From the NCBI RefSeq assembly GCF_963921235.1, contig NC_086097.1, positions 58,034,001 to 58,094,000 on the forward strand: a stretch of DNA of 60,000 bases, written 5' to 3'. The notes under the pieces were generated by a model that worked only from the letters and a program-made list of their open reading frames with translations, did not search any database and was not told the origin of the DNA. A program made the translations under genes and the position numbers. Numbering within the stretch: position 1 is the first letter of the stretch; every line of letters begins with the position of its first letter. The DNA is from Mobula hypostoma (taxonomy: Eukaryota). Shown in pieces: positions 4,773-47,780 of the stretch.

Positions 4773-4809
4773 AGTCCTGACGAAGGGTCTCGGCCTGAAA
4801 CGTCAACTG
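4773..4809 (+). ncRNA. Minimal hammerhead ribozyme motif in the Penelope terminal repeat
   Basis: agtc-CTGACGA-agggtctcggcct-GAAAC-GTC-aactg. The core is intact; stem I has one mismatch. Confidence 0.7.
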
Positions 4810-5299
4810 CACCTCTTCCTACAGATGCTGCCTGGCCTGCTGTGTTCACCAGCAACTTTGATGTGTGTTGCTTGAATTTCCAGCATCTGCAGAATTCCTG
4901 TTGTTTGGGGAATTTTCAATGTGTTGTAATTAATGTGCATTGGTCACATACCAAATATTAAGTAATCTTTTAGGTTATACATTTAGTTCACCCCTGAGCA
5001 AAACTACACAGGAAATTCTATGCTCACACAAAGTACAGACATTCCTTATAAATATTAACTTGTTGAAATCAGCACATTGTTCATCTACTCCTTTACCCAT
5101 ATAAATAAATCATATATTCACCATATCTTCATCTCCTCTCAAAGGATCTCACTCAGTGCAAAGCATAAGGTCTATAAGCCACAAATGAACAATTATAGAA
5201 AACAAAAGCAGGAGAAACTACTTTTGCCACTGAAAGGAAGGACAATGTGTGCAACAGATGTGGCAGGATCAGAAGCTTTAATAATTTGCAAGCCAATAT

Positions 5300-5643
5300 G
5301 AGGTTATGAGAAGATTCAATTGAAACATTCTAGATTTTGGAGAGATACTGTTTTTCTGCTGGTAGGGATTTCAAGACATGTGGACATGGTTTCAAATTCA
5401 GAGTCAGGCTGTTCAAGTCAAAATTCAGCAAAGATGGTGAAGGTATGGAACTCTCCCACACGAAGGAATAGATACTAATTCATTTATGAACTTAAATGTG
5501 AGGTTCACATTATTTGCTGGTTACGATACTAAGGAACATAGAACAAGGGCTTCTGCTGCAGATAGGATAAGGATCTGTTCAAGGTTACTGAATGGCAGAG
5601 GAGGCTTAAGAGGCTAAGTGGACTACTCCTATTTCTATATTGT
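5300..5643 (+). mobile_element. Old degenerate CR1 3' fragment
   Basis: Diverged similarity to the CR1 3' ends elsewhere in the window (gaatggcagaggaggcttaagaggctaagtggactactcct). Confidence 0.55.
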
Positions 5644-5794
5644 AAGTAGATATAGGAGTTCATGGCTTGTTAACTCTAATTTATTTCTATAGTGAATTTA
5701 GTGAATCAATAGTTCTCTCACATCTGAAGCAATTATAATTTGACATTAGAATTAGTATTAGTTGAATACAGGGCAAGAAATACATGTACATGCA

Positions 5795-6120
5795 GGCCTG
5801 CACAATGGCACAACTAACAAAGCTGGTGGCCCACAGCTCCAGTCCATGGGTTCATTCCTGACCTTTAGTACTGTTTGCGAGGAATCTATACGTTCTCACT
5901 GTGACCACCTGAGTTTCCTCTACATGCTCTTGTTTCCGCCCATGTCTCAAAAAGGGTGAAGTTAAGTCATTGTCAACTGTTCCTCATGTGTTGAGAGGTA
6001 AAATCTGCGAGGTGTTGTTGCAAATGTGGGAAGGATAAAATGGATTAGTATAAATATGTGATGCATTGTGAGGACTCAGTGGGCTAAAGTTTCTTCTTCC
6101 ATGATGCATGACTCTATGAC
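5795..6120 (+). mobile_element. tRNA-derived V-SINE (HE1-like), degenerate
   Basis: B-box-like gggttcattcc, V-domain-like gttctcactgtgaccacctgagtttcctc, and CR1-like tail gactctatgac. Confidence 0.65.
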
Positions 6121-6404
6121 AATGGTATGTATAAATTTCAACAGACAGGGAAAATGACTTACCAGGAATTTGTGGTTAAATAAGGAAATGTACTAATGAA
6201 TAACTTTGTTCAGTATGTTTGGAGATAGCAATTCTGCTACCTTCCCATTAGTCTAAATTATATCCATCACATCTCTCACTAAACACACCACATTGCCTGT
6301 CTCTCTCCGATCCCTCAGAAAGCCCCCCTTTCAGAGAATTGGTAAATTTTCTACTTCAGTCATTAAAAGAGCTTATAAACATATATACCAACAGCGATTA
6401 ACAG

Positions 6405-6585
6405 TAAACACGAGAAATTCGGCAGATGCTGGAAATCCGAAGCAAAACACACAAAATGCTGGAGGAACGCAGCAGGTCAAGCAGCATCTAGGGAATTGAA
6501 TAAACAGTCAACGTTTGGGCTGAGACCTTTCTTCAGGACTGGAAAGGAAGGGGGAAGGCACCAGAAAGTGATGGAGGAGGGGCAG
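6405..6585 (-). mobile_element. Penelope terminal-repeat copy with a degenerate hammerhead motif (6505-6541)
   Basis: Reverse-complement similarity to 4770-4907; reads cagtc-CTGAAGA...AAACGTT-gactg. Confidence 0.85.
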
Positions 6586-7689
6586 AGACCCTATAAAGAG
6601 TCAGAGAGAGGCAGAGATAAAAGGTGTAACTTTTAAGAATGTCAAAGGTCTGAGCTGAAATAGGTGGATACATCTCTTACACAAACAATCAGAGATATTT
6701 TCCCTGTTAGAGCCCTTGCAAGTTAGGCAAATACTATGTTTTTCAGTAGCAATTGACAATACCACCTCTACTCTTCATGTTTGCTTTCCTGGTTGAGGTC
6801 CATGTATTTTACAATAATGCATGTAAAGCCAGATATTCAAAGAGTGTTGTGTTCCATGTTAACTGATATCATTTCTCGGTGCTAAGCAGCTTCTATCACA
6901 AGGGCAAAAATGGGTGAGTCATTTCCTGATCTGATCTACCTTCTCTTGGAAGTGCTTTCAGCAATCAGTTTTGTCCATAGTTCAATTACACAGCATGTGT
7001 AATCTGATCTATACAATTGAATTCCATCTCAGTTACAAATTTGCCTGAGACTCCAAAGGCTGAATTTAATCTGAAGCTTGAAGAATTTACTTCTTAATAG
7101 TCTGGGAGTCAAAATAATAATTATTTCTTCCGTTTATCTAGATAAGGAGTGACGAGCAAACTCTGGAACCTTTTGATGGATGGAATTCTACTGAACCGTG
7201 CTGCAGGTTGGAACCTAGCCCACAGGTCACAGGAATAAGAAGTTCACATCCACTCTGTGCACAGCTGAAAAGTTGTTGCCTTTTACTATTAATTAATTAT
7301 GGTTATTAGTCAGAAAATGGAGGGAGAATGTTCTTTTGTTACTATTCATCATGAGTCTTGAATGCAAGTCAGGGGCAAGTGAAAGAAGGGTGAGATATGG
7401 CACCGTGCCCCCAAATCTAATGATCTCTATCCTTTCAATATTCTTTACGCATATTAAAGAAGCACATGTGTGTGCACTGGCTTGTAGAGAGACTGAAGGA
7501 ATGCACAGAGAAACAGTCCTGAGCACATTGATTGATGTTACACCAAAAATCTCTCAGTGTTCTGATCCAGGTGTCAAAAATAGATATATTGCTGTAGGAG
7601 TCCAGTTCTACTTCAAAAAGCAGACCACTTAATAGAACAACTGATCTAATGTCTAGTGTACATCTCTATACTGGCCTCAAATTAACAGT

Positions 7690-9878
7690 TGGCATTGCAT
7701 ATGATGTTGTAGCCATCACTGAATCATGGCTGAAGGACGGTTGTAGTTGGGAGCTGAATGTCCAAGGTTACATGTTATAACGGAGGGATAGGAAGGTAGG
7801 CAGAGGGGGTGGTGTGGCTCTCCTGGTAAAGAAAGGCATCAAATCAGTAGAAAGATGTGACATAGGATTGGAAGACGTTGACTTCTTGTGGGTTGAGTTA
7901 AGAAACTGCAAGGGTAAAAGGATGTTGATGGCAATTATATGCAGGCCTCCAAACAGTGGCTGGGAGATGGACCACAGATTACAACAGGAAATAGAAAAAG
8001 TGTGTCAAAAGGGCAATGTTATGGTAGCCATGGGAGATCTGTGGATAGTAAAGGTTTTTTCAAGTATGTTAAAAATAAAAGAGAAATGAGAGTGGATATA
8101 GGACTGCTAGAAAATGAAGCAGGAGAAATAAAGACAGGGACAAGGAGATGGCTGATGAACTAAATGAGTATTTTGCATCAGTCTTCACTGTGGAAGACAC
8201 TGGCAGTATGCCTGATATTGTAGTGTGTGAGGGAAAAGAGTAGGGTGCAGTTACTATTACAAGAGAGAAGGTGCTCAAAAAGCTGGAAGACCTAAAGGTA
8301 CGTAAGTCATGCGGACCAGATGTATTGCACCCTAGGGTGGTGAAAGAGGTAGCATTAGAAATTGTGGTGGCATTAGAAATGATATTTCAAAAATCACTGG
8401 ACTCTGACATGGTGCCAGAGGTCTGGAATATTTCAAATGTCACTCCACTCTTTAAGAAAGGAGGAAGGCAGCAGAAAGGAAATTATAGACCAGTTAGCCT
8501 GACCTCAGTGGTTGGGAAGATGTTGAAGTCAATTGTTAAGGATGAGGTGATGGAGAACTTGGTGACACAGGACAAGATAATACAAAGTCAGCATGGTTTC
8601 CTTCAGGGAAAATCCTGCCTGACGAACCTGTTGGAATTCTTTGAGAAGATTACAGGTAGGATAGATAAAGGGGATGCAGTAGATGTTGTACACTTGGACT
8701 TTCAGAAGTCCTTTGACAAGTGCCACACATGAGGCTACTTACCAAGTTAAGAGCCCATGGTATTACAGGAAAGTTATTAACATGGTTAGAGCTTTGGCTG
8801 ATTGGTAGGAGGCAGTGAGTGGGAATAAAAGGATCCTTTTCTGGTTGGTTGCCAGTGACTAGTGGTGTTCTGCAGCGATCGGTGTAGGGACTGTATGCTA
8901 TTATTTATGCTGTATATAAATGATTCAGATGATGGAATAGATGGCTTTGTTGCCAAGTTAGCAGATGATACAAAGATTGGTGAAGGGGCACGTAGTGTTG
9001 AGGAAACAGGTAGGATGCAGAAGGACTTAGACAAATTAGGAGACTGGGCAAGAAATTGGCAAATAAAATGCAATGTTGGAAGATGAGTGGTCATGCGCTT
9101 TGGTAGTAGAAATAAACATGTGGACTATTTTCTAAATGGGGAGAAAATCCAAAAATCTGAGATGCAAAGGGACTTGGGAGTCCTTGTTCAGAACGCCTTG
9201 AAGGCTAACTTGCAGGTTGAGTTGATGATGAGGAAGGCAAATGCAATGCTTGCATTCATTTCAAGAGGTCTAGAATACAAGAGCAAGAATGTGATGCTGA
9301 GGCTTTTTAAGGCGCTGGTGAGGCCTCACCTTGAGTATTGTGAACAGTTTTGGCCCCTCATCTTAGAAGAGAAGTGCTGGCATTGGAGGGTGTTCAGAGG
9401 AGGTTCACAAGGGTGATTCCAGGAATGAAAGGGCTATCATACGAGGAACGTTGGATGGCCCTGTGTCTGTACTCGCTGGAATTCAGAAGGATGAGGGGGT
9501 ATCTCATTGAAACCTCTCAAATGTTGAAAGGCCTGGACAGAGTAGATGTGGAAGGGGCGTTTCCCATGGTGGGAGAGTCTAGGAAAAGAGGGCACAACCT
9601 CAGAATAGAGAGGGGCGCCCTTTCAAAGCAGTGATGCGGAGAAATTTCTTTAGCCAAAGGGTGGTGAATTTGTGGAATTTGTTGCCACATGCAGCTGTGG
9701 AGGCCAGGTCGTTGGGTGTATTTAAGGCAGAGATTGATTGGGTATGGCATCAAAGGTTACGGGAAGAAGGCCGGGAACTGAGGTTGAAGAGGAGAGAAAA
9801 AAATTGGATCAGCCATGATTGAATGGTGGAGAGGCTTGATGGGCCAGATGCCCTAATTCTGCTCCTATGTCTCATGGT
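7690..9878 (+). mobile_element. CR1 LINE ORF2 (APE endonuclease and RT), 5'-truncated, with an internal deletion at about 8040
   Basis: ITESWL, WVELRN, NYRPVSLTSVVGK, LDFQKSFDK, KLADDTK and RPHLEYC motifs; CR1 3' end ctgctcctatgtct; many stops and frameshifts. Confidence 0.95.
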
Positions 9879-9894
9879 GTAACACTTTTGCTTA

Positions 9895-10230
9895 GATTAG
9901 GTTTATCAGTCAAATGCACATCAAGGCATACAGTGAAATGCATTGTTTGCGTTAGGGACCGACACTGTGAGAATGTTCTGGGGGCAGGCTGCAAGCTTTG
10001 CCACACATTCCAGCGCCAACATAGCATGCCCACAATGTTCAGCAGAACATACAAGATAGACACAACAACAGCAAAACAAATCCTTTCTACTATGGTCCTC
10101 TGGACCTGCCAACTGACCTCCGGCCTGCCCCGCAGACCTCCAACCCTGGGACTCGCCTAACTTAGGAGTCACTAGCTCTTGTCCTCATGGTCTGCCAATC
10201 TTCATCACTGGTCTTTATCCTCAACGCCTG
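9895..10230 (-). repeat. Unclassified SINE-like interspersed repeat
   Basis: A related copy lies in the opposite orientation at about 10760-10890 (ccacacattccagcgccaacatagcatgcccac versus gtgggcttgcatgttggtgctgggaatgtgg). Confidence 0.55.
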
Positions 10231-10324
10231 CTGACATGACTTCTATCCTTAGGGATAGATGGAATCTGATATCTGGGCCTTTACAATATACTTCCTTGAG
10301 TTTTTCAGCATTCCCTAATGTCTC

Positions 10325-10573
10325 TGTTGTGTACTTAACATGTCAGTAATATTTGCTCAAAATTGTAACTATACAGTATTGTTTTATTAAGCATTCCTGG
10401 TTGTTCACATAATTCACTTTGGGGTATATGTAAAAATACATAAATGGCATATGTTGTCACGCCAGATCATATGTGCGCACTTCCCTAAAGTAAAACTAAC
10501 ATACACAATTTATTCTCAGTACCTGTGTTTTTCTTTCGATTAGTTTTATGTTTTGGAGTTAAAAAACATACCA
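10325..10573 (+). mobile_element. Solo LTR of Gypsy family A
   Basis: TG...CA ends, 249 bp, perfect 5-bp TSD gtctc (10320-10324 and 10574-10578), homologous to 23559-23807 and 40470-40705. Confidence 0.9.
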
Positions 10574-10759
10574 GTCTCTTGTTACGTATTTTCACTGTGT
10601 GAGTAAGGTGGCCTTTGTGAGTAATCCTCAGGGCCTGCCAACCACAGTCCTTGATCTCAAAGGTCAAGAACTGCGGTCGACAGGCCCTATGGATGAGGGT
10701 CGGTGATCTCTAATGGGCTTACCCATTGGGGTAGGAAAGGGTTTATGTTACTTTCGTTG

Positions 10760-15522: not shown

Positions 15523-17544
15523 AAATCCTTCACTTTGTTGAATAGATTAATCGCCAATTCAGGTTTCTTTCACTAAATCTATGGTTGTCTCTCGTAGACT
15601 CTCTCTCCCTCATGCCAGCCACACTGTGTTGCTGCTGTTTAGCTACTAGGGTACTGTACCTTTAAGGACTGAAGCCTTTCTCTGATAGATTTACAGCAAA
15701 TTGTTAAAGGATGCATCAGGGACACCTAGTCCATCTAGGAAAAGTGTACGCTTTAGCATATTTTGGATGTAATCCACTTTGGATGTTTCAATTGTCATTT
15801 TGATCAACTTCATGAGAGTTTTTGGCTAATCCTGTTCTGACATTAGCACAAACCTCAACAATATTTTAGTGCAGGCAAATCAAAATAGATGAAACCAAAT
15901 TTCTACACCTCAATGCTTAGACTGTACTCTCTTTTCAACAACTTATTTACTAATGTACTGAATTGATTGTCAGCATAGCAACACCACAGGATAATTCACC
16001 AATAATCACTCAGCTGAAAGCTACATCTGGACAATGTTCCTGAAGCCATCAACACAGGTTTAACCGTGCTTAATCTGTGTGCATCACCTGAAGCTCACAC
16101 GGTCTGAGCTCAGTGATTCCAAGCAACAGAGCAACTCACAGCACGCATCAACTTTCAACCCTCCCAATCAATGGCTGTGCTTATCATTCCGAGGGGATTT
16201 TGAAAATAGGCTTGAGTAGACTGCCCTGGGTGATAGATAGAACCTGAGTGAACTAGAGCAGATGGTGGGAGCAGAGAAGCAGCTCTGATGACCAGTTCAC
16301 ATCTATTATTAGTGGATGAAAATAGGGATTCCGTCCTCAGGGAGTTTGCTTTTAAAAGAAGAATGCTTACTGAGCATGAAAGATTTGCAGCTATTAGACT
16401 CCATGCCAATCAATCTTCAACAGGTGGTGACTCGTGTGGTGGAGTCCATTACAGTATTGATGCACAGAATCAAAGCCTTGAAGTCGACCTTGGAACATAT
16501 GGTAAATCCAGAGACATCTGCAATGAAGTCCCCAGTTGAAACGGTTCAAATGCCACTAATACCCTCTTCTTTGAATGGAGCTCCTGCCTGAGCAACTTCA
16601 GGGCAGTACTATATGCAAAAATTTAGCAGACTGTGAAAATAGCAAACACTGGCAATTTCAAAAAGGATCTAGGCATATTCTTATCAGTAGATGAAATCAT
16701 AGTCATTAGAATGCATCAAGGGGATAATTGTGGGTAAGTGGGCAGATGGACTGAAGGACATCTCCTCCTGCGAACTCTCGCAATATTATGTAAGTTTGGG
16801 AGATCGAATTTACATGGACTCAGAAACGAATACCTGGAAAGATAAAGCTATACAAGCCAGAAGCTCTCAATTAACAATCCAGACCAGGACGCCACATTCA
16901 GCATCATTGTGGTACTGAAGAGGTAAAGCACCACACAAGGCTCCTTTTCCTGATACAGGTTGAGTATCCATTTATCTAAAAATCTGAAGTCTGAAACTTT
17001 TTCAAAAAAGGCACAGCATTAAATTTTAAAGATTTATGATGAAAAAGCGCCTGCTGATCACAAAACAGCAGAGCAATTCATTGATGAGTTTGCTAAGATC
17101 ATCACAGATGAAAATCTAACACTGGAACAAGTCTACGACACTGACTGTAACCTAACACCTAAAAAAAGTAAAATACAAATACAGTGTACTGTAGCCTTTT
17201 AATCGAAATGCGACATTATAGGTGGAGACTGAAAGCTTGCCATTGTTTGTTTGTTGTTCAACAGCTAAATCCGATGCCGCTATGCTGCTTTTGTCACCCT
17301 GCACACATTATATTAATAGTATGTAGTCATTTTTACTGTGAAGTACAAATGCGTGATGAACAAGTGTAAGACAAAGTCTGCTTACCAGTAACACATAAAT
17401 TCAGAGTCAGAAATGATGGCGATCCCAAGCTATATATTCCAATACGTAAACATAAGGGAATCTGCAGATGCTGGAAATTCAAGCAACACATACAAAATGC
17501 TGGTGGAACGCAGCAGGCCAGACAGCATCCATAGGAAGAATCAT

Positions 17545-17580
17545 AGTCGACGTTTTGGGCCGAGACCCTTCGACAGGACT
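17545..17580 (-). ncRNA. Hammerhead motif with a mutated core
   Basis: Reverse complement reads agtc-CTGTCGA-agggtctcggccc-AAAACGTC-gact. Confidence 0.5.
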
Positions 17581-17626
17581 AACTGAAAACAGGACTAACT
17601 GGGTAAGTGGGCAGATGCTTTCAGCT

Positions 17627-17663
17627 AGTCCTGACGAGGGGTCTCGGCCTGAAACGTCGACTG
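17627..17663 (+). ncRNA. Minimal hammerhead ribozyme motif, intact core
   Basis: agtc-CTGACGA-ggggtctcggcct-GAAAC-GTC-gactg; stem I is AGUC/GACU. Confidence 0.75.
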
Positions 17664-18141
17664 TGCTTCTTCCTATGGATGCTGTCCGGCCTGCTGCGTT
17701 CCACCAACATTTTGTGTGTGTTGCTTATATATTCCAATAGTATATTGAAAAATCCCCAAAATATCAGAATTCAAAGTTTCAAAGGTTGAAAGGCTCATTT
17801 ATTATCAAAGTATACAACTCAGAAATTCTTCTTCTCCAGATTGCCATGAAACCAAGAAAGAAAAAAACGGCAGCACGATCATCAACCGCCAAATCCCCCC
17901 TCCTGCATAAAAAAAAGAACAAAAGTAGAACAGGCACATCAACCCCAAAATTCCCCTCCTCCACACACAAAACAAACAAGAAAGATGAGACAAAAAACAG
18001 AATATAAAAAACTATAAGACTAAAAAAAAGTCTGTAGTCCAAGTCCTTATCCAAAACGCAGACAGCCTGAATAACATTCTCCAGACACAGCAGCAGGCTT
18101 TCCTGTCTCCAGCAACAGAGCATTCCAGCAGCAGTCAAAAG

Positions 18142-21100
18142 TGATCATTAATGCTGCCCTCAACCACATCTCTTCCACTTCACGCTTGCCTGCTCTTACC
18201 CCATCCTCTCGCCACGCTACCAGGGTTGGGGTTCCTCTTGTCCTCACCTACCACACCACTAGCTTTTGTGTCCAGCTCATAATTCCCTGAAACTTTCGCC
18301 ACCTCCAACTGGATCCCACCACCAAATACATCTCTCCCTCCCACACACTTGTCTGCTTTCCGCAGAGATCGCTCCCTATGCGACTCCCATGTCCATTCGT
18401 CCCTCCCCACTGATCTCCTCCCTGGCACTTATCCTTGCAAGCAGAACAAGTGCTACACCTGCCCCTACATCACTCCCTCACTACCATTCAGGGCCCCAAA
18501 CAGTCCTTCCAGGTGAGGCGACACTTCACCTGTGGGTCTGTTGGGGTCATCTACTGTTCGGTGTTCCTGGTGTGGCCACTTGTATATTGGTGAGACCCGA
18601 TGTAGATTGAGAGACCGCTTCACCGAGCGTCTATGCTCCGTATGCCAGAACAAGTGGGATCTCCCAGTGGCCAGCCATTTTAATTCCACTTCCCATTTCC
18701 ATTCCGATAAGTCCATCCACGGCCTTCACCACTGTTGGGATAAGGTCACACTTAGGTTGGAGGAACAACACCATATATTCTGTTTGGGCAGTTTCCAACC
18801 TGATGGCGTGAACATATTTCAATGCGAGGAGTATTATGAATAAAGCGGATGAGCTTAAAGTGTGGATCAGCACTTGGATGATGTTGTAGACATTTCAGAG
18901 ACTTGGATGGTGCAGGGACAGGAATGGCTACTTCAAGTGTCAGGCTTTAGATGTTTCAGAAAGGATAAGGAGGGAGGCAAAAGAGGTGCGGGCATGGCAC
19001 TGTTGATCAGAGATAGTGTCACGGCTGCAGAAAAGGAGGAAGTCACAGAGGGGTTGTCTACGGAATCCCTGTGGGTAGAAGTTAGGAATAGGAAGGGATC
19101 TATAACTCTGCTGGGTGTTTTTTATAGTAACAGGGATATTGAGGAGCAGATAGGGAGACAGATTCCGGAAAGGAGTAATAATGACAGGGTTGTCGTGGAG
19201 GCAGATTTTAATTTTCCAAATATTGATTGGCATCTCCCTGGAGTGAGGGGTTTAGATGGGGTGGAGTTTGTTAGGTGTGTTCAGGAAGGCTTCCTGACAC
19301 AATATGTAGATAAGCCTACAAGAGGAGAGGCTGTACTTGATCTGGTATTGGGAAATGAACCTGGTCAGGTGTCAGGTCTCTCAGCGGGAAAGCATTTTGG
19401 AGATAGTGATCACAATTCTACCTCCTTTACCATAGCATTGGAGAGGGATAGGAACAGACATGTTAGGGAAACGTTTAATTGGAGTAAAAGGAATATGAGG
19501 CTATCAGGCAGGAACTTGGAAACATAAATTGGAAACAGATGTTCTCAGGGAAACGTATGGAAGAAATGTGGCAAATGTTCAGGGGATATCTGTGTGGTGT
19601 TCTGAGTAGGTACGTTCCAAAGAGACATGGAAAGAAAGGTAGGGTACAAGATCCGTGGTGTACAAAGGCTGTTGTAAGTCTAGTCAAGAAGAAAAGAAGA
19701 GCTCATGAAAGGTTCAAAAAACTAGGTAATGATAGGAATCTAGAAGATTATAAGGCTAGCAGGAAGGAGCTTAAGAATGAAATTAGGAGAGCCAGAGGGG
19801 CCATGAGAAGGCCTTGGTGGACAGGATTAAGGAAAACCCCAAAGCGTTCTACAACTATGTGAAGAGCAAGAGGATAAGAAATGAGAGAATGGGACTAATC
19901 AAGTGTGACAGTGGAAAAGTGTGATTGGAACCAAAAGAAATAGCTGGGGTAATTAATGGATACTTTGCTTCAGTATTCACTACGGAAAAGGATCTTGGCT
20001 ATTGTAGGGATGACTTGCAGTGGACTGAAAAGCTTGAGCATGTAGACTTTAAGGAAGAGAATGTGCTGGAGCTTTTGGAAAGCATCAAGTTGGATAAGTC
20101 GCCGGGACCGGATGAAGTGTACCCCAGGCTAGTGTGAGAGGCGGGGGAGGAGATTTCTGAGCCTCTGGTGATGATCTTTGCATCATCAGTGGGGACGGGA
20201 GAGGTTCTGGAGGATTGGAGGGTTGCAGATGTTGTTCCCTTATTCAAGAAAGGCAGTAGGGATAGCCCAGGAAACTACAGACCAGTGAGTCTTACTTCAA
20301 TGGTTGGTAAGTTGATGGAGAAAATCCTGAAAGGCAGGATTTATGAACATTTGGAGAGGCATAATATGATTAGAAATAGTCAGCATGGCTTTGTCAAGGG
20401 CAGGTCATGCCTTATGAGCCTGATTGAATTTTTTGAGGATGTGACTAAACACATTGATGAAGGTAGAGCCGTAGATGTAGTGTATATAGATTTTAGCAAG
20501 GCATTTGATGAGGCTTATTGAGAAAGTATGGAAGCATGGGATCCAAGGGGACATTGCTTTGTGGATCCAGAACTGGCTTGTCAACAGAAGGCAAAAAGTA
20601 GTTGTAGACGGGTCATATTCTGCATGGAGGCTGGTGACAAGTGGTGTGCCTCAGGGATCTGTTCTGGGACCTCTACTCTTTGTGATTTTTAGAAATGACC
20701 TGGATGAGTAAGTGGAGGGATGGGTTAGTAAATTTGCTGATGACGCAAAGGTTGGGGGTGTTGTGGATATTGTGGAGGGCTGTCAGAGGTTACAATGGGA
20801 CATTGATAGGATGCAAAACTGGGCTGAAAAGTGGCAAATAGAGTTTAACCCAGATAAGTGTAAGGTGGTTCATTTTGGTAGGTCAAGTATGATGGCAGAA
20901 TATAGCATTACTGGTGAGACTCTTGGTAGTGTGGAGGATCAGAGGGATCTTGGGCTCCAAGTCCATAGGACACTCAAAGCTGCCAGACAGGTTGACTCTG
21001 TGGTTAAGAAGGCATACGGTGCATTGGCCTTCATCAGTCGTGGGATTGAGTTTAAGACCCGAGAGGTAATGTTGCAGCTATATAGGACCCTGGTCAGATC

Positions 21101-21994
21101 CCACTTGGAGTACTGTGCTCAGTTCTGGTTGCCTCACTACAGGAAGGACGTGGAAACCATAGAAAGGGTGCAGGGGAGATTTACAAGGATGTTGCCTGGA
21201 TTGGGGAGCATGCCTTATGAGAATAGGTTGAGTGAACTCGGCCTTTTCTCCTTGAAGCGTCAGAGGATGAGAGGTGACCTGGTAGAGGTGTACAAGATAA
21301 TGAGAGGCATTGATCATGTGGATAGTCAGAGGCTTTTCCCCAGGGCTGAAATGGCTAGCACGAGAGGCCATAGTTTTAAGGTGCTTAGAAGTAGGTACAG
21401 AGGAGATGTCAGGGGTAAGGTTTTTATGCAGAGAGTGGTGAGTGCGTGGAACGGGCTGCCGGAGGTGTCGGTGGAGGCAGAAATGATAGGGTTTTTTAAA
21501 GGAGTCCTAGATGGCTACAAGGAGCTTAGAAAAATAGAGGGCTATGGGTAAAGCCTAGGTAGTTCTAAGGTAGGGATATGTTCGACATGTGGGCTGAAGG
21601 GCCTGTTTTATACTGTAGGTTTTCGATGTTTCTATCAATTTCTCAAACTTCCGGTGATGACTCCACCCACCCCCCCTCCCTCACCATTTCCCATCCCCTT
21701 GTCCATCTCTCGTGTTATCTTCTGGTCTGCCCATCGCCTCCACCCCACTTTTTTCTTTCTTCCATGGCCTTCTGTCTCTTTCACCAATCAACTAGCTCTT
21801 CACTTCATCCCTCACCCCTCCAAGTTTCACCTATCCATGTCATTTCTCTGTCCCATCCCTCCACCTTTCAAATCTGCTTCTCAGCTTTTTTTCTCCAGTC
21901 CTGCCAAAGGGTTTTGTCCTGAAATGTCGACTGTTCTTTTTTCCATAGATGCTGCCTGGCCTGCTGAGTTCCTCCAGCATTTTGTGTGTGTTGC
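18142..21994 (+). mobile_element. 5'-truncated Penelope-like element, split by a CR1
   Basis: GIY-YIG remnant LYIGETRCRLRDRFTE. The sequence resumes after the CR1 at 21636 (caatttctcaaacttccgg) and ends in the terminal repeat. Flanked by agcagtcaaaag and agcaatcaaaag. Confidence 0.88.
18815..21635 (+). mobile_element. CR1 LINE covering nearly all of ORF2
   Basis: [41 protein letters not shown] and KFADD motifs; tail tttcgatgtttctat. Confidence 0.95.
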
Positions 21995-22860: not shown

Positions 22861-22993
22861 TCCTGACGAAGTGTCTCGGCCTGAAACGTCGACTGCACCT
22901 CTTCCTACAGATGCTGCCTGGCCTGCTGCGTTCACCAGCAACTTTGATGTGTGTTGCTTGAATTTCCAGCATCTGCAGAATTCCTGTTGTTTG
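22861..22993 (+). mobile_element. Isolated 133-bp Penelope terminal repeat with a hammerhead motif (22860-22895)
   Basis: Near identical to 4775-4907. 12-bp TSD tgccgaaattgg / tgctgaaattgg (22849-22860 and 22994-23005). Core CTGACGA...GAAACGTC-gactg. Confidence 0.9.
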
Positions 22994-31739: not shown

Positions 31740-32681
31740 ATGGAGACAGTAGTTAGGGCAGTTGAATGCTCCATTTTCAGGACGTGGGAAGTCAGGGCGA
31801 GCACAATCGTCCCTGATAGCTACACCCGCAAAAGATGCATCCAGCTGCAGCTCCTGACAAACTGAGTTAGGGAACTGGAGCTGGAGCTGGATGAACTTTG
31901 GATCATTCGGGAGGCAGAGGCAGAAGTAGAGAGGAGATACAGGGAGATAGTCACCCCTAAGGGTCAGGAGACAGGTAGCTGAGTGACTGTCAGGAGAGGG
32001 AAGGGGAATAGACAGAATGAGCAGAGCACCCCTGTGGCCGTTCCCACCAATAATAAGTACATCGTTTTGGATATTGTTGATGGGGACGACCTACCAGGGA
32101 CAAGTTGCAGTGGTTGCATCTCTAGCACCGAGATGGGACACTCAACTCAGAAGGGAAGGAGGGAAAAGAGGAGAGCAGTAGTGATAGGGGATTCGATAGT
32201 TAGGGAGACAGATAAGAGGTTCTGTGGAAGAGATCGAGAATCCCAGATGGTCTGTTACCTCCCTGGTGCCAAGGTCCGCGATATCTCAGATCGAGTTCTC
32301 GGTATTCTCGAGAGGGAGGGTGAGCAGCTGGATGTCGTGGTCCAGGTAGGGACCAATGACATGGGTAGGAAGAGTGCAGAGGTCCTGAAAGGTGAGTTTA
32401 GGGAGTTAGATGCCAAGTTAAAGGGCAGGACCTCCAGGATAGCAATCTCAGGATTTCTACCAGTGCCATGTGCAGGCGGGTTTAAAAATAGTAAGATAGC
32501 GCAGATCAACACGTGGCTGAAGACATGGTGCAGGAGGGAGGGCTTCAGATTTATAGATAATTGGGCAGTTTTCCAGGGAAGGTGGGAACTGTTCCTGCAG
32601 AACAGTTTACATCTTAACAGGAGGGGGACAAATATTCTTGCAGGCAGGTTCGCTAGAAAGGCTCTGGTGGATTTAAACTAG
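31740..32681 (+). pseudogene. CR1 ORF1p: decayed zinc finger, coiled coil and SGNH/GDSL esterase
   Basis: ATG at 31740 is in frame with ORF 31983-32681. Motifs VIGDSIVR, VGTND and SLHLN. In-frame TGA stops at about 31863 and 31980. Confidence 0.88.
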
Positions 32682-32799
32682 ATATGAGCGGGGAGGGGAA
32701 CCAGAGTGTAGGAACAGATGTAGGGAAGAAGGAAGAAAAAGGAAATAGTAAAGTTGTTTGCACCGTTAGTGATAAACAGAGAGTGAAAGGTGGAAAATT

Positions 32800-35596
32800 T
32801 CTTAAATGAATTTATTTTAATGCTAGGAGCATTATAAGAAAGGTGGAGGAGTTTAAAGCATGGATTGATACCTGGAAGTATGATGTGGTAGCTATTAGTG
32901 AAAGATGGTTACAGGCGGGGTGTGATTGGCAACTAAATATTCCTGGATTTAATTGCTTCAGGTGTGATAGAATCAGAGGGACAGAAGGGGGAGGTGTTGC
33001 ATTGCTTGTCAGAGAAAATATTACAGTGGTGCTCTGGCAGGATAGATTAGAGGGCTCGTCTAGGGAGGCTATTTGGGTGGAATTGAGGAATGGGAAAGAT
33101 GTAGTAACTCTTGTGGGGGTGTACTATAGATCACCAAATGGGGAGCGAGAATTGGAGGAGCAAATCTGTAAGGAGATAGCGGATATTTGTAGTAAGCACA
33201 AGGTTGTGATTGTGGGAGATTTTAATTTTCCACACATAGACTGGGAACCCCATACTGTAAAAGGGCTGGATGGTTTGGAGTTTGTAAAATGTGTGCAGGA
33301 TAGCTTTTTGCAGCAATACATAGAGGTACCAACTAGAGAAGGGGCAGTGTTGGATCTCCTGTTAGGGAATGAGATAGGTCAGGTGGTGGAGGTTTGTGTT
33401 GGGGAGCATTCGGGTCCAGTGATCACAATGCTATTAGTTTCAATATAATTATGGAGAAGGATAGGTCTGGACCCAGTGTTCAGATTTTTGATGGAGAAGG
33501 CTAACTTTGAGGAGGTGTGAAAGGATTTAGGAGTGGATTGGGACAATTTGTTTTATGGGAAGAATGTAATAGAGAAATGGAGGTCATTTAAAGGTGAAAT
33601 TTTGAGAGTACAGAATCTTTATGTTCCTGTTAGGTTGAAAGGAAAGGTTAAAAGTTTGAGAGAGCCATGGTTTTCAAGGGATATTGGAAACTTGGTTCAG
33701 AAAAAGAGAGATATCTACAATAAAATATAGGCAGCTTGGAGTATATGAGGTGCTCGAGGAATATAAAGAATGTAAAAAGAATCTTAAGAAAGAAATTAGG
33801 AAAGCTAAAAGAAGATATGAGGTTGCTTTGGCAAGTAAGGTGAAAATAAATCCCAAGGGTTTCTACAGTTATATAAATAGTAAAAGGATAGTGAGGGATA
33901 AAACTGGTCCCTTAGAGAATCAGAGTGGACAGCTATGTGTGGAGCCAAAATAGATGGGGGAGATTCTGAACAATTTCTTTTCTTCGGTATTCACTAAGGA
34001 GAAGGACGTTGAATTGAGTAAGATAAGGGAAACAGGTAGGGAAGCTATGGAAACTATGATGATTAAAGAAGAGGAAGTTCTGGAGCTTTTAAGGAATATA
34101 AAAGTAGATAAGTCTCCGGGCCCTGACAGGATAGTCCCTAGGACCTTGAAGGAAGTTAGTGTGGAAATAGCAGGGGCTCTGACAGAAATATTTCAAATGT
34201 CATTAGAAACGGGGATGGTGCCGGAAGATTGGCATATTGCTCATGTTGTTCCATTGTTTAAAAAGGGTTCTAAGAGTAAACCTAGCAATTATCAGCCTGT
34301 GAGTTTGACGTCAGTGGTGGGTAAATTGATGGAAAGTATTCTTAAGGATGGTATATATAATTATCTGGACATTCAGGGTCTGATTAGGAGCAGTCAACAT
34401 AGATTTGTGCATGGAAGGTCGTGCTTGACAAATCTTATTGAATTTTTTGAAAAGGTTACTAGGAAAGTTGACGAGGGTAAAGCGGTGGATGTTGTTTATA
34501 TGGACTTCAGTAAGGCCTTCGACAAGGTCCCACACGGAAGGTTGGTTAGGAAGGTTCAATCATTAGGTATTAATATTGAAGTAGTAAAATGGATTCAGCA
34601 GTGGTTGGATGGGCGATGCCAGAGAATGGTGGTGGATAACTGTTTGTCAGATTGGAGGCCAGTGACTAGTGATGTGCCTTAGGGATCTGTACTGGGTCCA
34701 ATGTTATTTGTCATATACATTAATGATCTGGATGATGGAGTGGTAAATTGGATGAGTAAGTATGCAGATGATACTAACATAGGTGGAGTTGTGGATAATG
34801 AAGTAGGTTTTCAAAGCTTGCAGAGAGATTTAGGCCAGTTAGTAGAGTGGGCTGAAAGATGGCAGAAGGAGTTTAATGCTGATAAATGTGAGGTGCTACA
34901 TTTTAGTAGGACTAATCAAAATAAGACATACATGGTAAATGGTAGGGCATTGAAGAATGCAGTAGAACAGAGGGATCTAGGAATAATGGTGCACAGTTCC
35001 CTGAAGGTGGAATCTCATGTGGATAGGGTGGTGAAGAAAGCTTTTGGTATTCTGGCCTTTATAAATCAGAGCATTGAGTATAGGAGTTGGGATGTAATGT
35101 TGTAACTGTACAAGGCATTGGTGAGGCCAAACTTGGAGTATTGTGTACAGTTTTGGTCACCAAATTATAGGAAAGATGTCAACAAAATAGAGAGAGTACA
35201 GAGAAGATTTACTAGAATGTTACCTGGGTTTCATCACCTACGTTACAGAGAATGGTTGAACAAGTTGGGTCTTTATTCTTTGGAGTGTAGGAGGTTGAGG
35301 CGGGACTTGATAGAGGTATTTAAAATTATGAAGGGGATAGATAAAGTTGATGTGGATAGGCTTTTTCCATTGAGAGTGGGGAGGTTCAAACAAGAGGACA
35401 TGAGTTGAGAGTTAAAGGGCAAAAGTTTAGGGGTAACATGAGGGGGAACTTCTTTACTCAGAGAGTGGTAGCTGTGTGGAACGAGCTTCCAGCAGAAGTG
35501 GTTGAGGCAGGTTTGATGTTGTCGTTTAAAATTAAACTGGACAGCTATATGGACAGGAAAGGAATGGAGGGTTATGGGCTGAGTGCAGGTCGGTGA
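32800..35596 (+). pseudogene. CR1 ORF2p: APE endonuclease and reverse transcriptase
   Basis: YFNARSI, GDFNFP, MDFSKAFDKVPH and KYADD motifs; several stops and frameshifts. Confidence 0.92.
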
Positions 35597-37901: not shown

Positions 37902-39726
37902 AAATGAAAGTGAATTAGGAAATGTACTAGATGATGCAACAGCAGTTTTCAAGGATGGCATCGGAAAGCTCAAACGTATCAAGGGTGAAATAGTGTCAAA
38001 TGAAAACGCCGCACCAAAGTTTTACAAAGCCCTTCCAGTTACTTATACCATCCGTGATAAAGTAGCCAGTGAGCTAGATCACATGGAGGCTGAAGGAATT
38101 CTTTCCATGTTTGAATGGAGCAGTAGCCAAGAAGAATAGGTCTGTCAGGACCTAGTACTGAAAGTAGATCAATCCCTCTGCCCAGGATAGAGGATATCTC
38201 TGCAAACCTTTCTGGAGGGAACACTTCAGCAAAGTTGACTTAGCTGAGGCCTTCCTACAGATGGAGATGGAAGATGAGTCCAAATGTCTTCTCATCATAA
38301 ATACTCACAAAGAGCTTTATCGCTATATTAGGCTTATTTTTGGAGTAGCATCTACACTCCGGCAGAAAGTGATGGACGAGGTGCTACAAGGCTGCCCAGG
38401 CACTCAGTGTTATCTGGTTGACATCATTGTTACCAATGAGGATGACAAGGAACATCTCCAAAATCTCATGACATTGTTAAAAAGATTAGAAGGTTATGGA
38501 CTTAAAGCAGAATGCAACTGGTGTGAATTCTTTAAACCAAGCATCACTCACTGTGGTCAAATCATTGACGCACAGGAATTACATAAGTATGCTGAGAAAA
38601 CTCATGCAGAGATGAATGACTCAAGGCCTAAGAATGTGTCATAGTTCAAAGTTCAAAATTCAATGTACTTTTATTATTAAAGTATGTATACATTATATAA
38701 CCTCTCCATCCCTGGGAATGGCCTGCATTGACCTGGTGGAAGTTTCATGCAGATTTTGCCAGACTTTTCATGGGCACAAATTTCTTGTTCTTCGTGGATG
38801 CAGCCGTAAAGAGGCCAGAAGTGTTTTCAATAGTCTCCACTACAGCCTTGCACTCTGTTGATGTGCTGGGGAGCCTCTTCTCAGGGACTGGTGTTCCAGA
38901 ACACTTTGTCACTGACAATGGACCACAGATTATTGCAGAACAGTTTCAGTCATTCCTGAAAATGAATGGAATAAGACATATTTCATCTACACCGTACCAC
39001 CCAGCTACAAATGGCTTGGTGGAAAGGTTTGTCCAGAGTCTAAAGACACACTGCAGGCAATGTCAGCAGAACGTGCTACACTGACACTGTGTCAGAAGCT
39101 CGTCAATTTCCTCCTTGCATATCACATTGTAGCACATTGCACAACTAACAGTTGGTCAGCTATACTGCTCTGGGGTCATCCCTCGCACACACGCGTGGAT
39201 CTCCTCAAATCAAAACTTAGAAGTATGCAGGAGAATCAGCTGAGACAAATTGAGGGCTCTTCAAACAAGGAGGTTTGATGTTTTACTCCTGGACAAGCAG
39301 TCCGAGCAAGAGACTACAGAGGTGATCAAAAGTGGGTACTTGGCAAGATTAAGGACAGAACTAGACCACTCTCCTACACAGTGAAGATTATGTCTGATAT
39401 TATCTGGAGACAACATATAGATCAGTTGAGCAGAGCAGAGTCAGTTATTAGAGAAGAAAGTTGTCCAGAGCTGTCAGAACCACTTCCTGCAGTCCCAGAG
39501 TCAATTCCAACAACCATCATGGAGAAGGAGTCAGAACCTAAGACTGTTTCACAGCCGCAAGTCTCACCTGTCAAACAGAGTGAGCCTCCTTTATCAAGAC
39601 GTTATCTCACAAGAGTAAAAAAATCCTCCACAATGATTAAATATTTAAGCCTCAATGGGACAATTTAACAATTACAATGCTATGGATGTCTATGTAGTAG
39701 TTATATTATATAGTATACTATATGTG

Positions 39727-39729
<3 letters not shown>

Positions 39730-39771
<42 letters not shown>
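39730..39771. repeat. (TA)n(CA)n microsatellite
   Basis: Direct reading of the sequence. Confidence 0.95.
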
Positions 39772-39772
<1 letters not shown>

Positions 39773-39810
39773 TCTGAATTTATGTATATAATTGAAAGGC
39801 TTTCTGTATT

Positions 39811-40976: not shown

Positions 40977-41535
40977 CAGCAACACGTGCAAAATGCTGGA
41001 GGAACTCAGCAGGCCAGGCAGCATCTATGGAAAAAAGTACAGTCGACGTTTCCACCTGAGACCCTTCGGCAGGACTGGAAATCCAGAGCAACACACACAA
41101 AAAGCTGGAGAAATTCAGCAGGTCAACAACATCTATGGAGAGGAATAAACAGTTGACATTTCAGGCAAAGGATCTCAGTCCAAAACGTCGACTGTACTCT
41201 TTTCCATCAATGCTGCCTGGCCTGCTGAGTTCCTCCAGCATTTTGTGTGTGTTGCTCTGGATTTCCAGCATCTGCAGATTTTCTCTTGTTTGCTGTTGTC
41301 TTTGTAGCTTCAATGGGACAGAATCAAAATGTCCCATCAAATTGTGTTCGGGTTTTATTTCTTGAATGCTAGTTTATTTAATTCATAATTATGCGATACA
41401 AAAGGTCTCGGCCTGAAATGTCAATTGCGTATTCTCCTCCATAGATGCTGCTGAGCTGCTGAAGTCAATTCCTCCAGCATTCTGTGTGTGTGTTGCTCTG
41501 GATTTTCAACGTCTGCAGAATCTCTTGTGTTTATG
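40977..41535. repeat. Cluster of four Penelope terminal-repeat copies (two minus, then two plus)
   Basis: Repeated caacacacaaaatgctggaggaactcagcagg and its reverse complement; hammerhead-like motif at 41040-41077 on the minus strand (CTGCCGA variant). Confidence 0.85.
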
Positions 41536-43789: not shown

Positions 43790-44050
43790 GTAGAAGGATC
43801 AAGGACTCAAGGTGATACAGTAGGTGCACAAGAAAGGGGAATGGAATTTAAAAGTGATATGAGAAAAAATCTGTCTCACACGGGGTGTGGTTGTAATCTG
43901 GATTCCATATGTAGTGGAAGTACATTCTAAGGTGGATTCAAGTATAGTATGAAGAAAAGTTTGAATTCAAGCAGAGAAAGGCCTGAAGGAGTGGAATAAG
44001 TGTATTGTTCTTATACAGATTAGTTATGGCTGAGTGGCCTCCTGTGATGT
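43790..44050 (+). mobile_element. Old CR1 3' fragment
   Basis: Diverged match to the CR1 C-terminus and 3' UTR (ggctgagtggcctcct). Confidence 0.5.
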
Positions 44051-44953
44051 AACTACTCTGTGGGTAATGGATGAGTCGCTGCTGCAATTCTGCCATCACT
44101 CCGCAGACAGGAAGGAGTAAATGCACACGGTCACTGTCAGGGCTTCAGTTTGTTTCTGCTGGATTGTGTTGAATCATTTTAAGTGAGATTGGAACAGATT
44201 TCTTCCAAATTAATGTAGCGTTTTTCATTTTATTTTTGACGTGTGCTCTGGAGGTGACAGAAGGTCCATTTAGAATGGACAACATGCCTGCCTCAGCACA
44301 ATTTGTCCCTGTAGCCAGATGGTTTACGTGTTAATACTTGGCTCCGCTCAAACTCCCAAGATGTCGGTGAGGGTATCATAATGTTAATGCCATTAAATTT
44401 CAAGGGTGATTGGTTAAAGTCTCTCTATTGAGATGATTAGTGCCTGGCAGTCTTGTGACATGAATGTTGCTTGTCTTCCAGTACCTGTAAGAAGTATTCA
44501 CCCATCTTGGAAGTTCTCAAGTTTTATTGTTTTACAACTTTGAATCATAGTGGATTTAATTAGGCTTTGTTGACACGGATCAACAGAAAAAGACTCTTTT
44601 ATGTCAAAGTGATCTAAATTAATTTCAAATATAAAACACTAAATTATTGATTGCATAAGTATTCGCCCCTTTTTAATATGATACACCAAATCATCACTCG
44701 TGCAGACAGTTAGTTTCAGAAGTCACATAAGTAGCTAAGGTGTCCTAGCTATATAAAAACCTGTGTGCAGTCAAGGTGTTTCAAGTCAAGTCAAGTCACT
44801 TTTTATTGTCATTTCGACCATAACTGCTGGTACAGTACACAGTAAAAACGAGACAATGTTTTTCAGGACCATAGTGCTACATGAAACAATACAAAAACTA
44901 TACTGAACTACGTAAAAACAACACAAAACTACACTAGACTACAGACTGGAACC

Positions 44954-47478
44954 ATGGCCTCCCAGACATGGGCACCAGCCCCCGGTGGGCCATGGACTCA
45001 CTCGCCTCTGACTCTGACCGCAGTTCTGGGGCCCTGTAGGCTACAGGCTCCGCCACCCCCAGCTCCGGATCCAGCTCGGACCGAGGACCCGACCCTCTCC
45101 AGACTGGGACCCGCTGTTAATGCCGCTGGGTCCTACCGCCCGTCTTATTCCCCCACTACCCTCTTTCCTCCCCGCAACTCCCAACCTTCCCTCTACCCCT
45201 CATCGACCCTCCATTCCTCTGATCCCTCATCCTCCCCTAACCCTGCTCTCCCGGAATATCCCAATCCCCCTCTCCCTCCTGAGACCTCCTAACCTTCACC
45301 CTCCTCCGACCCCAGCTCCAACCCTTGCCGTGTCTTCACCATCCCCTCTGACCTTCCCCTCTCTGAGGCAGAACATTCTGTTCTTAGCAAGGGCTTCACT
45401 TTTGTCCCCCTCCGTCCACACCTCAGTGAGTTCCGTGCCCGCCATGACGCTGAACTCTTCCGTCACCTACGTCTCCGAGCCTATTTCTTTGGCAACGATT
45501 CCCCTCCCCCTACTGAGGACCCCTTCTCCCATCTTCAACACTCCTCCTCCTCCTGGACACCCCGCCCGGGCCTTCTAACTGCACTCCATCTTTTTATCTC
45601 CAACTGTCACCGAGACATCAACCGTCTCAACTTCACCACTCCTCTCTTCTGTTCCAACCTCACTCCCTCTGAACGCACTGCCCTCCACTCTCTCCGCACT
45701 AATCTCAACCTCACTATCAAACCCGCTGACAAAGGTGGTGCTGTAGTAGTCTGGCGGACGGACCTCTACCTCAATGAGGCCAAACGGCAGCTCTCTGACA
45801 CCACCTCTTACTTACCCGTGGAACAGGACCTCGCCAAAAAACATCAAACCATTGCCTCCCGCACCATCACCGCCCTTATCAACTCTGGAGATCTTCCATC
45901 CTCAGCCGCTAAACTCATTATTCCCACACCCCGTACCGCTCGGTTTTACCTCCTCCCCAAGATCCACAAACCTGACTGTCCCAGTAGACCCATAGTTTCT
46001 GCCTGCTCCTGTCCCACCGAACTTGTATCTGCCTACCTGGACTCCATTTTGTCACCCATAGTTCAGTCCCTCCCCACCTACATCCGGGATACATCCCATG
46101 CCCTCCACCTCTTCAATAACTTCCAATTCCCCAGTCCCAACTGCTTCATTTTCACTATGGATGTCCAATCCCTATACACCTCCATTCCCTATCAGGAAGG
46201 CCTCAAAGCCCTCCACTACTTTCTGGATAATAGACCTCACCAGTTCCCCACCACCACTACCCTCCTCCGGTTGATGGAACTGGTTCTCACACTCAATAAC
46301 TTCTCTTTTGGCTCTTCCCACTTTCTTCAGACTAAGGGTGTAGCTACGGGAACTCGCATAGGCTCTAGCTATGCCTGCCTCTTTGTTGGTTATGTGGAAC
46401 AGTCTGTGCTCCAAACCTATTCTGGTACTGCTCCCCAACTTTTCGTTCGGTACATTGACGACTACATTGGTGCTGCTTCCTGCACCCATGCTGAGCTCGT
46501 CAATTTCATCGACTTTACTTCAAACTTCCACCCAGCCCTCAAACTCACTTGGTCTATCTCGGACACTTCTCTCCCCTTTCTCGATCTCTCAGTCTCCATC
46601 TCTGGAGACAGACTGTCCACTGACAACTTCTACAAGCCCACTGACTCTCATAACTACCTCAACTATACCTCTTCCCACCCCACCACATGCAAGAATGCCA
46701 TTCCCTATTCCCAGTTCCTCCGTCTCCGCCGCATCTGCTCCGAGGATGAGGTTTTCCATTCCAGGACATCTCAAATGTCCTGTTTCTTTAAGGATCGTGG
46801 TTTCTCTTCTGCTATCATCAATGATGCCCTCACCTGTATCTCCTCCATTTCCCGCACTTCGGCTCTCACCCCATCCTCCCGTCACCACAACAGGGACAGA
46901 GTTCCCCTTGTCCCCACCTACCACCTCACCAGCCTCCGGATCCAGCACATTATCCTCCGCAACTTCCGCCACCTTCAACAGGACCCCACCACTAAGCACA
47001 TCTTTCCCTCTCCACCTCCTCCACTTTCTGCCGGGATTGGTCCCTCCCCACGGATCTCCCACCTGGCACTTATCCCTGTAAGCGCAAGTGCTACACCTGT
47101 CCCTACACCTCCTCTCTTGCCACCATTCAGGGCCCCAAACAGTCCTTCCAGGTGAGGCAACACTTCACTTGTGAGTCTGTTGGGGTCATCTATTGTATCC
47201 GGTGCTCCCGGTGCGGCCTCCTCTACATCGGTGAAACCCGACGCAGATTGGGGGACCGCTTCGTCGAGCACCTCCGCTCCATTCGCCACAACAGACAGGA
47301 TCTCCCAGTAGCCACCCACTTCAACTCTGCTTCCCACTCCCATTCAGATATGTCCATACATGGCCTCCTCTACTGCCACGATGAGGCTACACTTAGGTTG
47401 GAGGAGCAACACCTCATATACCGTCTAGGTAGTCTCCAGCCCCTTGCTATGAACATAGAATTCTCCAACTTCCGTTAA
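44954..47478 (+). pseudogene. Penelope polyprotein (RT and GIY-YIG endonuclease)
   Basis: IKPADKGGAVVV, FYLLPKIHK..RPIVS, TMDVQSLYTSIP, VRYIDD, then GVIYCIRC..LYIGET. One stop at 45290 and a frameshifting deletion at about 47040. Confidence 0.92.
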
Positions 47479-47742
47479 TTCCCTCCCCCTCCCTTCCCCT
47501 ATCCCTATGTCACTCTGCCCCCTCCCCCAGCTGCCTATCACCTCCCTCATGGTTCCGCCTCCTTCTACTACCCATTGAGTTTTCCCCTATTCCTTCTTCA
47601 CCTTTCCTGACTATCACCTCCCTGCTTCCTCTCCCCCACCCCTTTATCTTTCCCCTTACTGGTTTTTCACCTGAAACCTACCAGCCTTCTCCTTACCACC
47701 CTTCCCCCACCTTTTTCATAGGGCCTCTGCCCCTTTCCTCTA

Positions 47743-47780
47743 CAGCCCTGATGAAGGGTTCCAGCCCGAAATGTCGACTG
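47743..47780 (+). ncRNA. Minimal hammerhead motif in the Penelope terminal repeat
   Basis: cagcc-CTGATGA-a-gggt-tcca-gccc-GAAAT-GTC-gactg. Confidence 0.65.

Follow-up and report, generated by a model that had tools for sequence, protein, structure and literature searches.

The window analysed here, a 60,000-nucleotide stretch of the Mobula hypostoma genome (assembly GCF_963921235.1, contig NC_086097.1, positions 58,034,001 to 58,094,000 of the forward strand), contains 14 copies of one repeat, as identified by blastn and nhmmer. These very probably derive from the terminal repeat of a Penelope-like element (PLE) that encodes a reverse transcriptase (RT) and a GIY-YIG endonuclease (EN), and they are dispersed and shortened at the 5' end; each contains a whole or partial minimal hammerhead ribozyme, which likely serves the parent element only and is likely inactive here. 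A first-pass annotation of this DNA reported ten dispersed hammerhead motifs in a Penelope terminal repeat, and blastn and nhmmer placed every one of the ten in a copy of this repeat. The additional copies are located at 41157-41291 (plus strand), 41075-41166 (minus strand), 54988-55070 (minus strand) and 56707-56801 (plus strand). Of 17 nhmmer hits up to E 1, the 14 with E ≤1.2e-6 were aligned, and three at E 0.05-0.39 were excluded. The profile was made from 12 of the 14 copies, so their nhmmer scores are circular; blastn recovered those 12 without the profile.

Four copies are joined to EN or RT-EN sequence (those at 4773, 21896, 47743 and 54828), and the other ten are short. The longest copy (44946..47873, plus strand) contains a frameshifted RT with DKG and YIDD motifs, a CX3CxxC linker, a C-terminal GIY-YIG domain, a 3' untranslated region (UTR), a hammerhead and a tail. 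Pfam assigned RVT_1 (E 3e-6, under its cut-off) and GIY-YIG (E 1.8e-5) to this copy, which has neither an N-terminal domain nor an upstream repeat, and a perfect 13-bp direct repeat flanks it (44933 and 47874). The insertion at 3424..4906 (plus strand) is 5'-truncated and was identified by its motifs and by tblastn (64-87% to the 44946 copy); it consists of an RT end, a CX4CxxC linker, a GIY-YIG frame that extends to 4477, a pyrimidine-rich 3' UTR, a hammerhead and a tail, with a 13-bp direct repeat at 3411-3423 and 4905-4917. Its minimal type I hammerhead (4772..4809, plus strand) has an intact core, with C3 at 4777 and the cut site after 4804, and a broken closing pair in stem I. The hammerhead lies 270 nt behind the endonuclease frame in the 47743 copy and 300 nt behind it in the 4773 copy. 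A third insertion (18142..21992, plus strand) contains an RT end and part of the GIY-YIG domain (18144-18816), the end of the frame near 21635-21660, a 3' UTR and a damaged hammerhead near 21896, and it has no tail; a search over a wider interval identified its 14-bp direct repeat (18128 and 21993), which has one mismatch. A LINE-type RT element at about 18820-21630 splits this insertion, having landed a few codons short of where the Penelope-like endonuclease frame ends. The fourth is an old copy (54401..54922, plus strand) that retains the endonuclease C-terminus, the 3' UTR and a decayed hammerhead near 54828.

Among the short copies, a 133-nt tailed copy at 22861..22993 (plus strand) begins 2 nt before C3 (22863) and has an intact core with a mismatch in stem II; its 12-bp direct repeat (22849 and 22994) has one mismatch, and 129 of 132 letters are identical to the ORF-linked 4773 copy. 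The feature at 17445..17725 is a single insertion of two head-to-head copies, one on each strand (arms of 111 nt, 90% complementary), between perfect 14-bp direct repeats (17431 and 17726). Its minus arm is tailed and has a damaged core, and its plus arm is tailless with an intact core (C3 17631, extra base G). At the 5' junction of this inverted pair (17575-17602, minus strand), a 12-nt duplication includes both the stem I arm and the first part of the core, which would fit re-annealing of the template at this point. The copy at 6403..6557 (minus strand) has a tail and lacks G12, and its pyrimidine-rich upstream stretch goes past 6557. Three damaged copies are clustered at 40978..41291: 40978-41077 (minus strand, no tail), 41075-41166 (minus strand, starting in stem II) and 41157-41291 (plus strand, with tail). 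The two minus-strand copies in this cluster are joined head-to-tail at 41075-41077 via a short stretch common to the tail and the next stem I arm. A tailed copy at 41398..41532 (plus strand) begins inside the core. The remaining short copies are an old decayed copy at 54988..55070 (minus strand, nhmmer E 1.6e-10) and an old inverted pair at 56660..56801 (both strands), of which the plus arm begins in stem II.

Five insertions have target-site duplications of 12-14 bp, whereas none of 300 random pairs exceeds 11. Shorter flanking repeats (8-11 nt, six sites), including 8 bp at the 40978..41291 cluster, 9 bp at 41398..41532 and 11 nt (the upper edge of chance) at 56660..56801, are within chance and were not counted. 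Seven copies share one 3' end, and several others end about 35 nt earlier; in the 4773 copy, these two recurring ends delimit a 35-nt tail (4872..4906, plus strand). In two inverted pairs, only one arm has the tail.

We aligned contigs from four of 24 listed public runs to positions 4640-4930 (291 bases); runs X20 (share 0.06) and X21-X24 (share 0.00) were among those left out. The strongest loose ends, at 4906/4907, coincide with the end of the tail in all four runs, with a flank agreement of only 0.40-0.43 in three of them. Matching contigs numbered 102,544 and 83,821 in two DNA runs and 5,804 and 98 in the others; contigs are not equivalent to copies, and depth in the run alignments was not taken as copy number. 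These numbers fit a very large family, and together with 14 copies in 60 kb they bear out the very high copy number proposed in the first-pass annotation. The family is also represented in the contigs of two runs that were tentatively taken as RNA.

In the majority layout of the motif, a five-base arm is followed by CUGACGA, an extra base, stem II (4 bp, with a loop of 4 nt), GAAA, CG, UC and the partner of the first arm. The proposal that the motif is a minimal type I hammerhead belonging to a Penelope-like terminal repeat is supported. No bases separate the halves of the palindrome, so the motif lacks the helix III stem and loop of a canonical type I hammerhead. The core elements CUGAnGA, GAAA and UH, in this order around stem II, are also the majority letters in the four public runs. 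Within the window, the full core occurs in four of the 14 copies, with C3 at 4777, 17631, 22863 and 47748; all four are on the same strand, and the nearest two are at least 5.2 kb apart. The core that the copies were said to share is complete in these four only, and the statement that the hairpin loop varies while the core is kept fails for the other ten. A minimal-hammerhead descriptor found four cores in the window, as compared with a mean of 0.27 (maximum 3) in 300 dinucleotide shuffles, and one motif with both stems of at least 3 bp, as compared with none in all 300; because the copies are homologous, this excess counts as one origin. If the window is typical, four cores correspond to 67 intact cores per Mb (95% range 18-171, from a single 60-kb window).

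Each core-intact copy has a damaging change elsewhere, either in one of the two stems or at the extra base. The 4773 copy (UAGUC/AACUG) has A in place of G1.1, which breaks the closing pair of stem I; 84% of the depth in DNA run X1 is G at the corresponding position 4805. The 17627 copy (UAGUC/GACUG) has G as the extra base, the 22860 copy takes part of its stem I arm from the target-site duplication and has a mismatch in stem II, and the 47743 copy (CAGCC/GACUG; core intact, C3 47748) has a mismatch in stem I and UG in the palindrome of helix III. A stem I of CAGUC/GACUG had been described as common to the copies; the CAGUC arm is present in the 21896, 41040 and 6505 copies and in none of the four clear ones. 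An extra base follows CUGAnGA in all 13 copies that cover the place. As the first-pass annotation noted for many copies, it is usually A (11 of 13), although it is G in the 17627 copy that was proposed for a cleavage assay. The palindrome ACGU, reported as the reduced helix III, is kept (CG at 15.2-16.2) in seven copies and changed in seven (UG in five, UA in one, UU in one), and the UG and UA forms are CpG-type changes. The stem II loop is CUCG in six of 13 copies, CUCA in four and another sequence in three, mostly through CpG-type change. Beside stem I, a pyrimidine tract runs into a YAG that forms the 5' arm, an arrangement resembling a splice acceptor (4760-4775, 21880-21900, 47730-47746 and, on the minus strand, 6540-6560).

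Position 11.1 is U in eight of the 14 copies and C in five. In the four public runs, U accounts for 80%, 71%, 84% and 58% of the depth and C for 16-42%; stem II is therefore mostly closed by a G-U pair. We considered U at 11.1 as post-insertion decay and dropped this explanation, as U is the majority letter in the public runs; based on these alignments, U was probably inherited. Pairing of the extra A with U11.1 to give a canonical core was also dropped, as the extra base (A or G) stays unpaired in folds of the 4773 and 17627 copies. We also rejected a reading frame that runs on across the motif and tail, as the ATG frame has stops or shifts in three of six copies and varies by subfamily. Several published motifs have G-U closure of stem II (Fig. 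S3 of Cervera & De la Peña 2014, PMC4209133), and the hammerhead of the viroid CChMVd has an extra A at the same place, where G is strongly harmful (PMC3705267).

Most of the variation among the copies is CpG decay. In the 14-copy alignment, 41 of 129 CpG cells differ from the majority, as compared with 223 of 1486 cells elsewhere, and 38 of the 41 differences are of the deamination type (C-to-T or G-to-A). Here C was assumed to be ancestral at 11.1; if this column is left out, the values are 32 of 115 and 30 of 32. All 10 variant places listed for the public contigs within 4772-4809 lie in five CpG-type dinucleotides, and the majority sequence keeps the whole core and both stems, with no non-CpG change at ≥4% among the listed variants. 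Based on loose ends in the same contigs, similarity to other subfamilies stops at the two outer edges of stem I (4773 and 4809). Such a break would fit selection on the motif in parent elements, and it is the best sign of this kind in our data.

The parent element likely belongs to the Neptune group, as judged from its sequence. The longest copy encodes an RT with a DKG motif followed by a C-terminal GIY-YIG domain, and a CX2-5CxxC linker is present in both long copies and in 72 of the 77 listed relatives that reach the endonuclease motif. Neptune and Nematis have this linker, and Penelope/Poseidon lack it (PMC8557442). Among named proteins, those of Hypanus (82%, over half of the query), Mobula (76-78%) and Chiloscyllium (69%, over the whole query) are the closest. 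Two ray gene models, P0092 and P0120, which are named as kinase-domain and chitinase-domain proteins, consist almost wholly of the element's RT sequence; they are likely annotation artefacts or exonised copies.

In Poseidon of Anolis carolinensis (PAc; Frangieh 2024, PMC11167929), two sites within the RNA serve as starting points of reverse transcription and delimit the tail. The template is mainly uncut RNA, and cleavage by the hammerhead requires added protein. By analogy with PAc (PMC11167929), the endonuclease of the ray element would nick target DNA, and reverse transcription would begin at an internal position of the RNA, some 65-100 nt 3' of the cut site, and proceed through the uncut hammerhead. 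All 14 copies cross the cut site and none begins there, which means that the templates were likely uncut or rejoined. Among the listed loose ends and joints, none is at 4804/4805, and tailed 3' ends lie 98-110 nt behind the cut site. Following the model in PMC4209133, two motifs in a tandem parent transcript would pair via the ACGU palindrome and be cut after GUC; cleavage of this dimer is predicted to be weak and probably helped by the element's protein. A lone copy would have neither a helix III nor a partner, and the motif in an inverted pair would be buried in a long duplex. Single minimal-hammerhead motifs did not cleave in vitro (PMC4209133). In our predictions, monomers fold into other structures, the pair at 17445-17726 folds into a hairpin of -201 kcal/mol, and folding z-scores of 10 stretches (-1.82 to 0.69) are nothing special.

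Several results weigh against our main reading of the copies. The canonical G10.1-C11.1 pair is the minority form. Nearest-neighbour folding, which takes no account of tertiary contacts, puts the active dimer 18-31 kcal/mol higher than the most stable dimer structure; this modelled gap fits low activity and proves nothing. Three of the tests named in the first-pass annotation, namely Rfam models, covariation in stems I and II and excess conservation of the core, came out weak or negative. A search of the window with Rfam gave 14 matches up to E 5, none of them a hammerhead. Covariation of stems I and II is 0.148, as compared with 0.150 in 500 shuffles; 83% of the stem cells are paired and two have a double change, and 14 decayed copies offer little power. 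Non-CpG core cells differ from the majority in 6 of 107 cases, as compared with 75 of 644 downstream (p 0.065, not significant), and among the places listed for run X1, 0 of 28 non-CpG places in the motif vary at 4-96%, as compared with 11 of 175 in the flanks (p 0.37). RNAalifold gives no consensus structure for the copies. The window contains no full-length element with two repeats, and the dimer context is not seen here; the only adjacent same-strand copies are 41075-41166 with 40978-41077 and 41157-41291 with 41398-41532, and neither pair has an intact core. The likely placement in the Neptune group rests on one linker motif rather than on a tree.

The kind of motif described here is already known. 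All of the structural points in the first-pass annotation, including the extra A, are present in Cervera & De la Peña 2014 (PMC4209133), which places a nucleotide between 9 and 10.1 and a palindrome at 15.2-16.2 and gives the consensus CUGANGAH in Fig. S3. The ray copies resemble the minimal hammerheads of metazoan PLE terminal repeats (pLTRs) in that source: both are type I, with CUGAnGA-H, GAAA, a two-base palindrome that replaces helix III, a short stem I and a U-rich 5' flank, and both occur in high copy number, mainly as single dispersed motifs in truncated elements and also as opposite-strand pairs. The ray motif differs in its 4-bp stem II and in the majority G-U closure of that stem. 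Neither the 56 motifs of Fig. S3 nor Table S1 of that source include a cartilaginous fish. About 4,000 copies are reported for coelacanth and about 9,000 for Xenopus (PMC4209133), and if the window is representative, four intact cores in 60 kb would exceed what has been published for vertebrates. Our result adds a cartilaginous-fish example to this class.

PAc shares with the ray element a hammerhead upstream of two fixed ends, a tail of 30-40 nt and templates that are copied uncut. Unlike PAc, the ray element has a CX2-5CxxC linker, and whereas the PAc ORF starts in stem II, no frame is kept here through the motif and tail (PMC11167929). Neptune and Nematis elements with an endonuclease have the same order of RT, linker and C-terminal GIY-YIG, and they also show 5' truncation, an inverted partner and a tail at one end (Fig. 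2 legend of PMC8557442); in contrast to those elements, the flanking repeats in the window are mostly not (TA)n microsatellites. Retrozymes with canonical hammerheads reach up to 120,000 copies in axolotl (PMC7229834), and retrozymes derived from pLTRs occur in one cartilaginous fish (bioRxiv 10.64898/2026.07.22.740005). These non-LTR retrozymes likewise have type I hammerheads in pLTR-related repeats; however, the window contains no tandem units of two complete motifs, and its copies have target-site duplications and tails. In our literature search, which left out most subscription journals, shark or ray Penelope hammerheads were found only via this preprint, whose supplement may name the family. 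A family with this many copies could test the role of the hammerhead in PLEs, which PMC8557442 and PMC11167929 leave unsettled.

The alternative that survives best, which we regard as possible though tentative, is that the short copies are complete run-off copies of an RNA 5' leader rather than random 5' truncations, with a template that starts or is spliced just upstream of the hammerhead. This would alter the origin of the short copies and not the identity of the motif. Nine of the 14 copies begin between about 30 nt before and 25 nt after C3, with or without a tail, and the 22861 copy begins exactly after the AG of stem I; however, it is the sole short solo copy whose 5' end is set by an above-chance duplication, the rest being set by junctions or weak repeats, and a stable structure could stall the RT equally well. 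A YAG is present at stem I in eight of the nine copies that have the upstream arm, and the 20 nt before it are 80-90% pyrimidines in five long copies, but stem I also needs the YAG in order to pair, and the published consensus already includes a U-rich 5' flank. In Drosophila virilis, helix I marks the end of an intron (PMC4209133) that begins 46 bp after the start site (PMC2377424). In the public contigs, four of 12 listed joints have one side at 4772-4777, although no GT..AG joint is found among the 15 listed of 53 joints. A genome-wide map of 5' ends would distinguish among template starts at the cut site, at a splice acceptor and at random.

An extension of this idea seems unlikely to us: the genome would have one of the highest known densities of hammerhead motifs (18-171 intact cores per Mb if the window is typical) because a Neptune-type element mostly inserts 100-150-nt run-off copies of its leader, with a 5' boundary at a start or splice acceptor in stem I. 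If so, the copies would show where a Penelope RNA starts, where it is spliced and at which two sites it is primed, and their inverted pairs would feed A-to-I editing much like Alu pairs. In run X11, which is guessed to be RNA, A-to-G differences make up 7-11% of the depth at 4710, 4713, 4745 and 4754, as compared with 0-2% in run X1, and A-to-G places number 12 of 33 in X11 and 5 of 35 in X1 (same organism code, other sample; p 0.05). Editing of inverted-pair duplexes is possible, and these counts are a weak hint of it from samples that differ.

It is rather improbable that cutting was lost in this lineage and that the motif is kept for a non-catalytic job as a splice acceptor, internal promoter or protein-binding site. 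Such a job would agree with copies made entirely from uncut or rejoined templates, with the prevalence of G10.1-U11.1 in public contigs and with findings from Anolis, in which hammerhead mutants left insertion in vitro unaffected and RNA-seq ends were absent at the site (PMC11167929). Nevertheless, the majority sequence is intact in the core and both stems as described above, the same G-U closure occurs in several published motifs (Fig. S3 of PMC4209133), and the Anolis motif did cut once protein was added (PMC11167929).

We consider it very unlikely that the short copies are a non-autonomous family in their own right (SINE-like or a retrozyme) with a separate master. There are 10 short copies and 4 ORF-linked ones, and such repeats are the source of retrozymes (bioRxiv 10.64898/2026.07.22.740005), but the short 22861 copy nearly matches the ORF-linked 4773 copy, 5' ends vary among copies, and the window has no tandem array with two complete motifs. 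Finally, it is highly improbable that dispersed copies work as ribozymes, or have been co-opted as such, and cleave host transcripts by pairing in trans or across kilobases: the four core-intact copies share a strand and the family is present in contigs of the two presumed RNA runs, yet all four are altered in a stem or at the extra base, the decay is CpG-type, and single motifs were uncut in vitro (PMC4209133).

The window also contains other mobile elements. Broken pieces of an LTR-retrotransposon pol gene lie at 38168-39668, with hits to RVT_1 and the integrase core. Near these pieces, Rfam microRNA hits at 39708-39789 were rejected, as they fall on a TA/TG microsatellite and score far under the gathering thresholds. 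A LINE at 31983-35105 has a piece of a GDSL-esterase ORF1 and RT pieces, and we take it to be CR1-like based on this domain layout. A fragment of a Tc1-type transposase (HTH_Tnp_Tc3_2) is located at 50392-50820.

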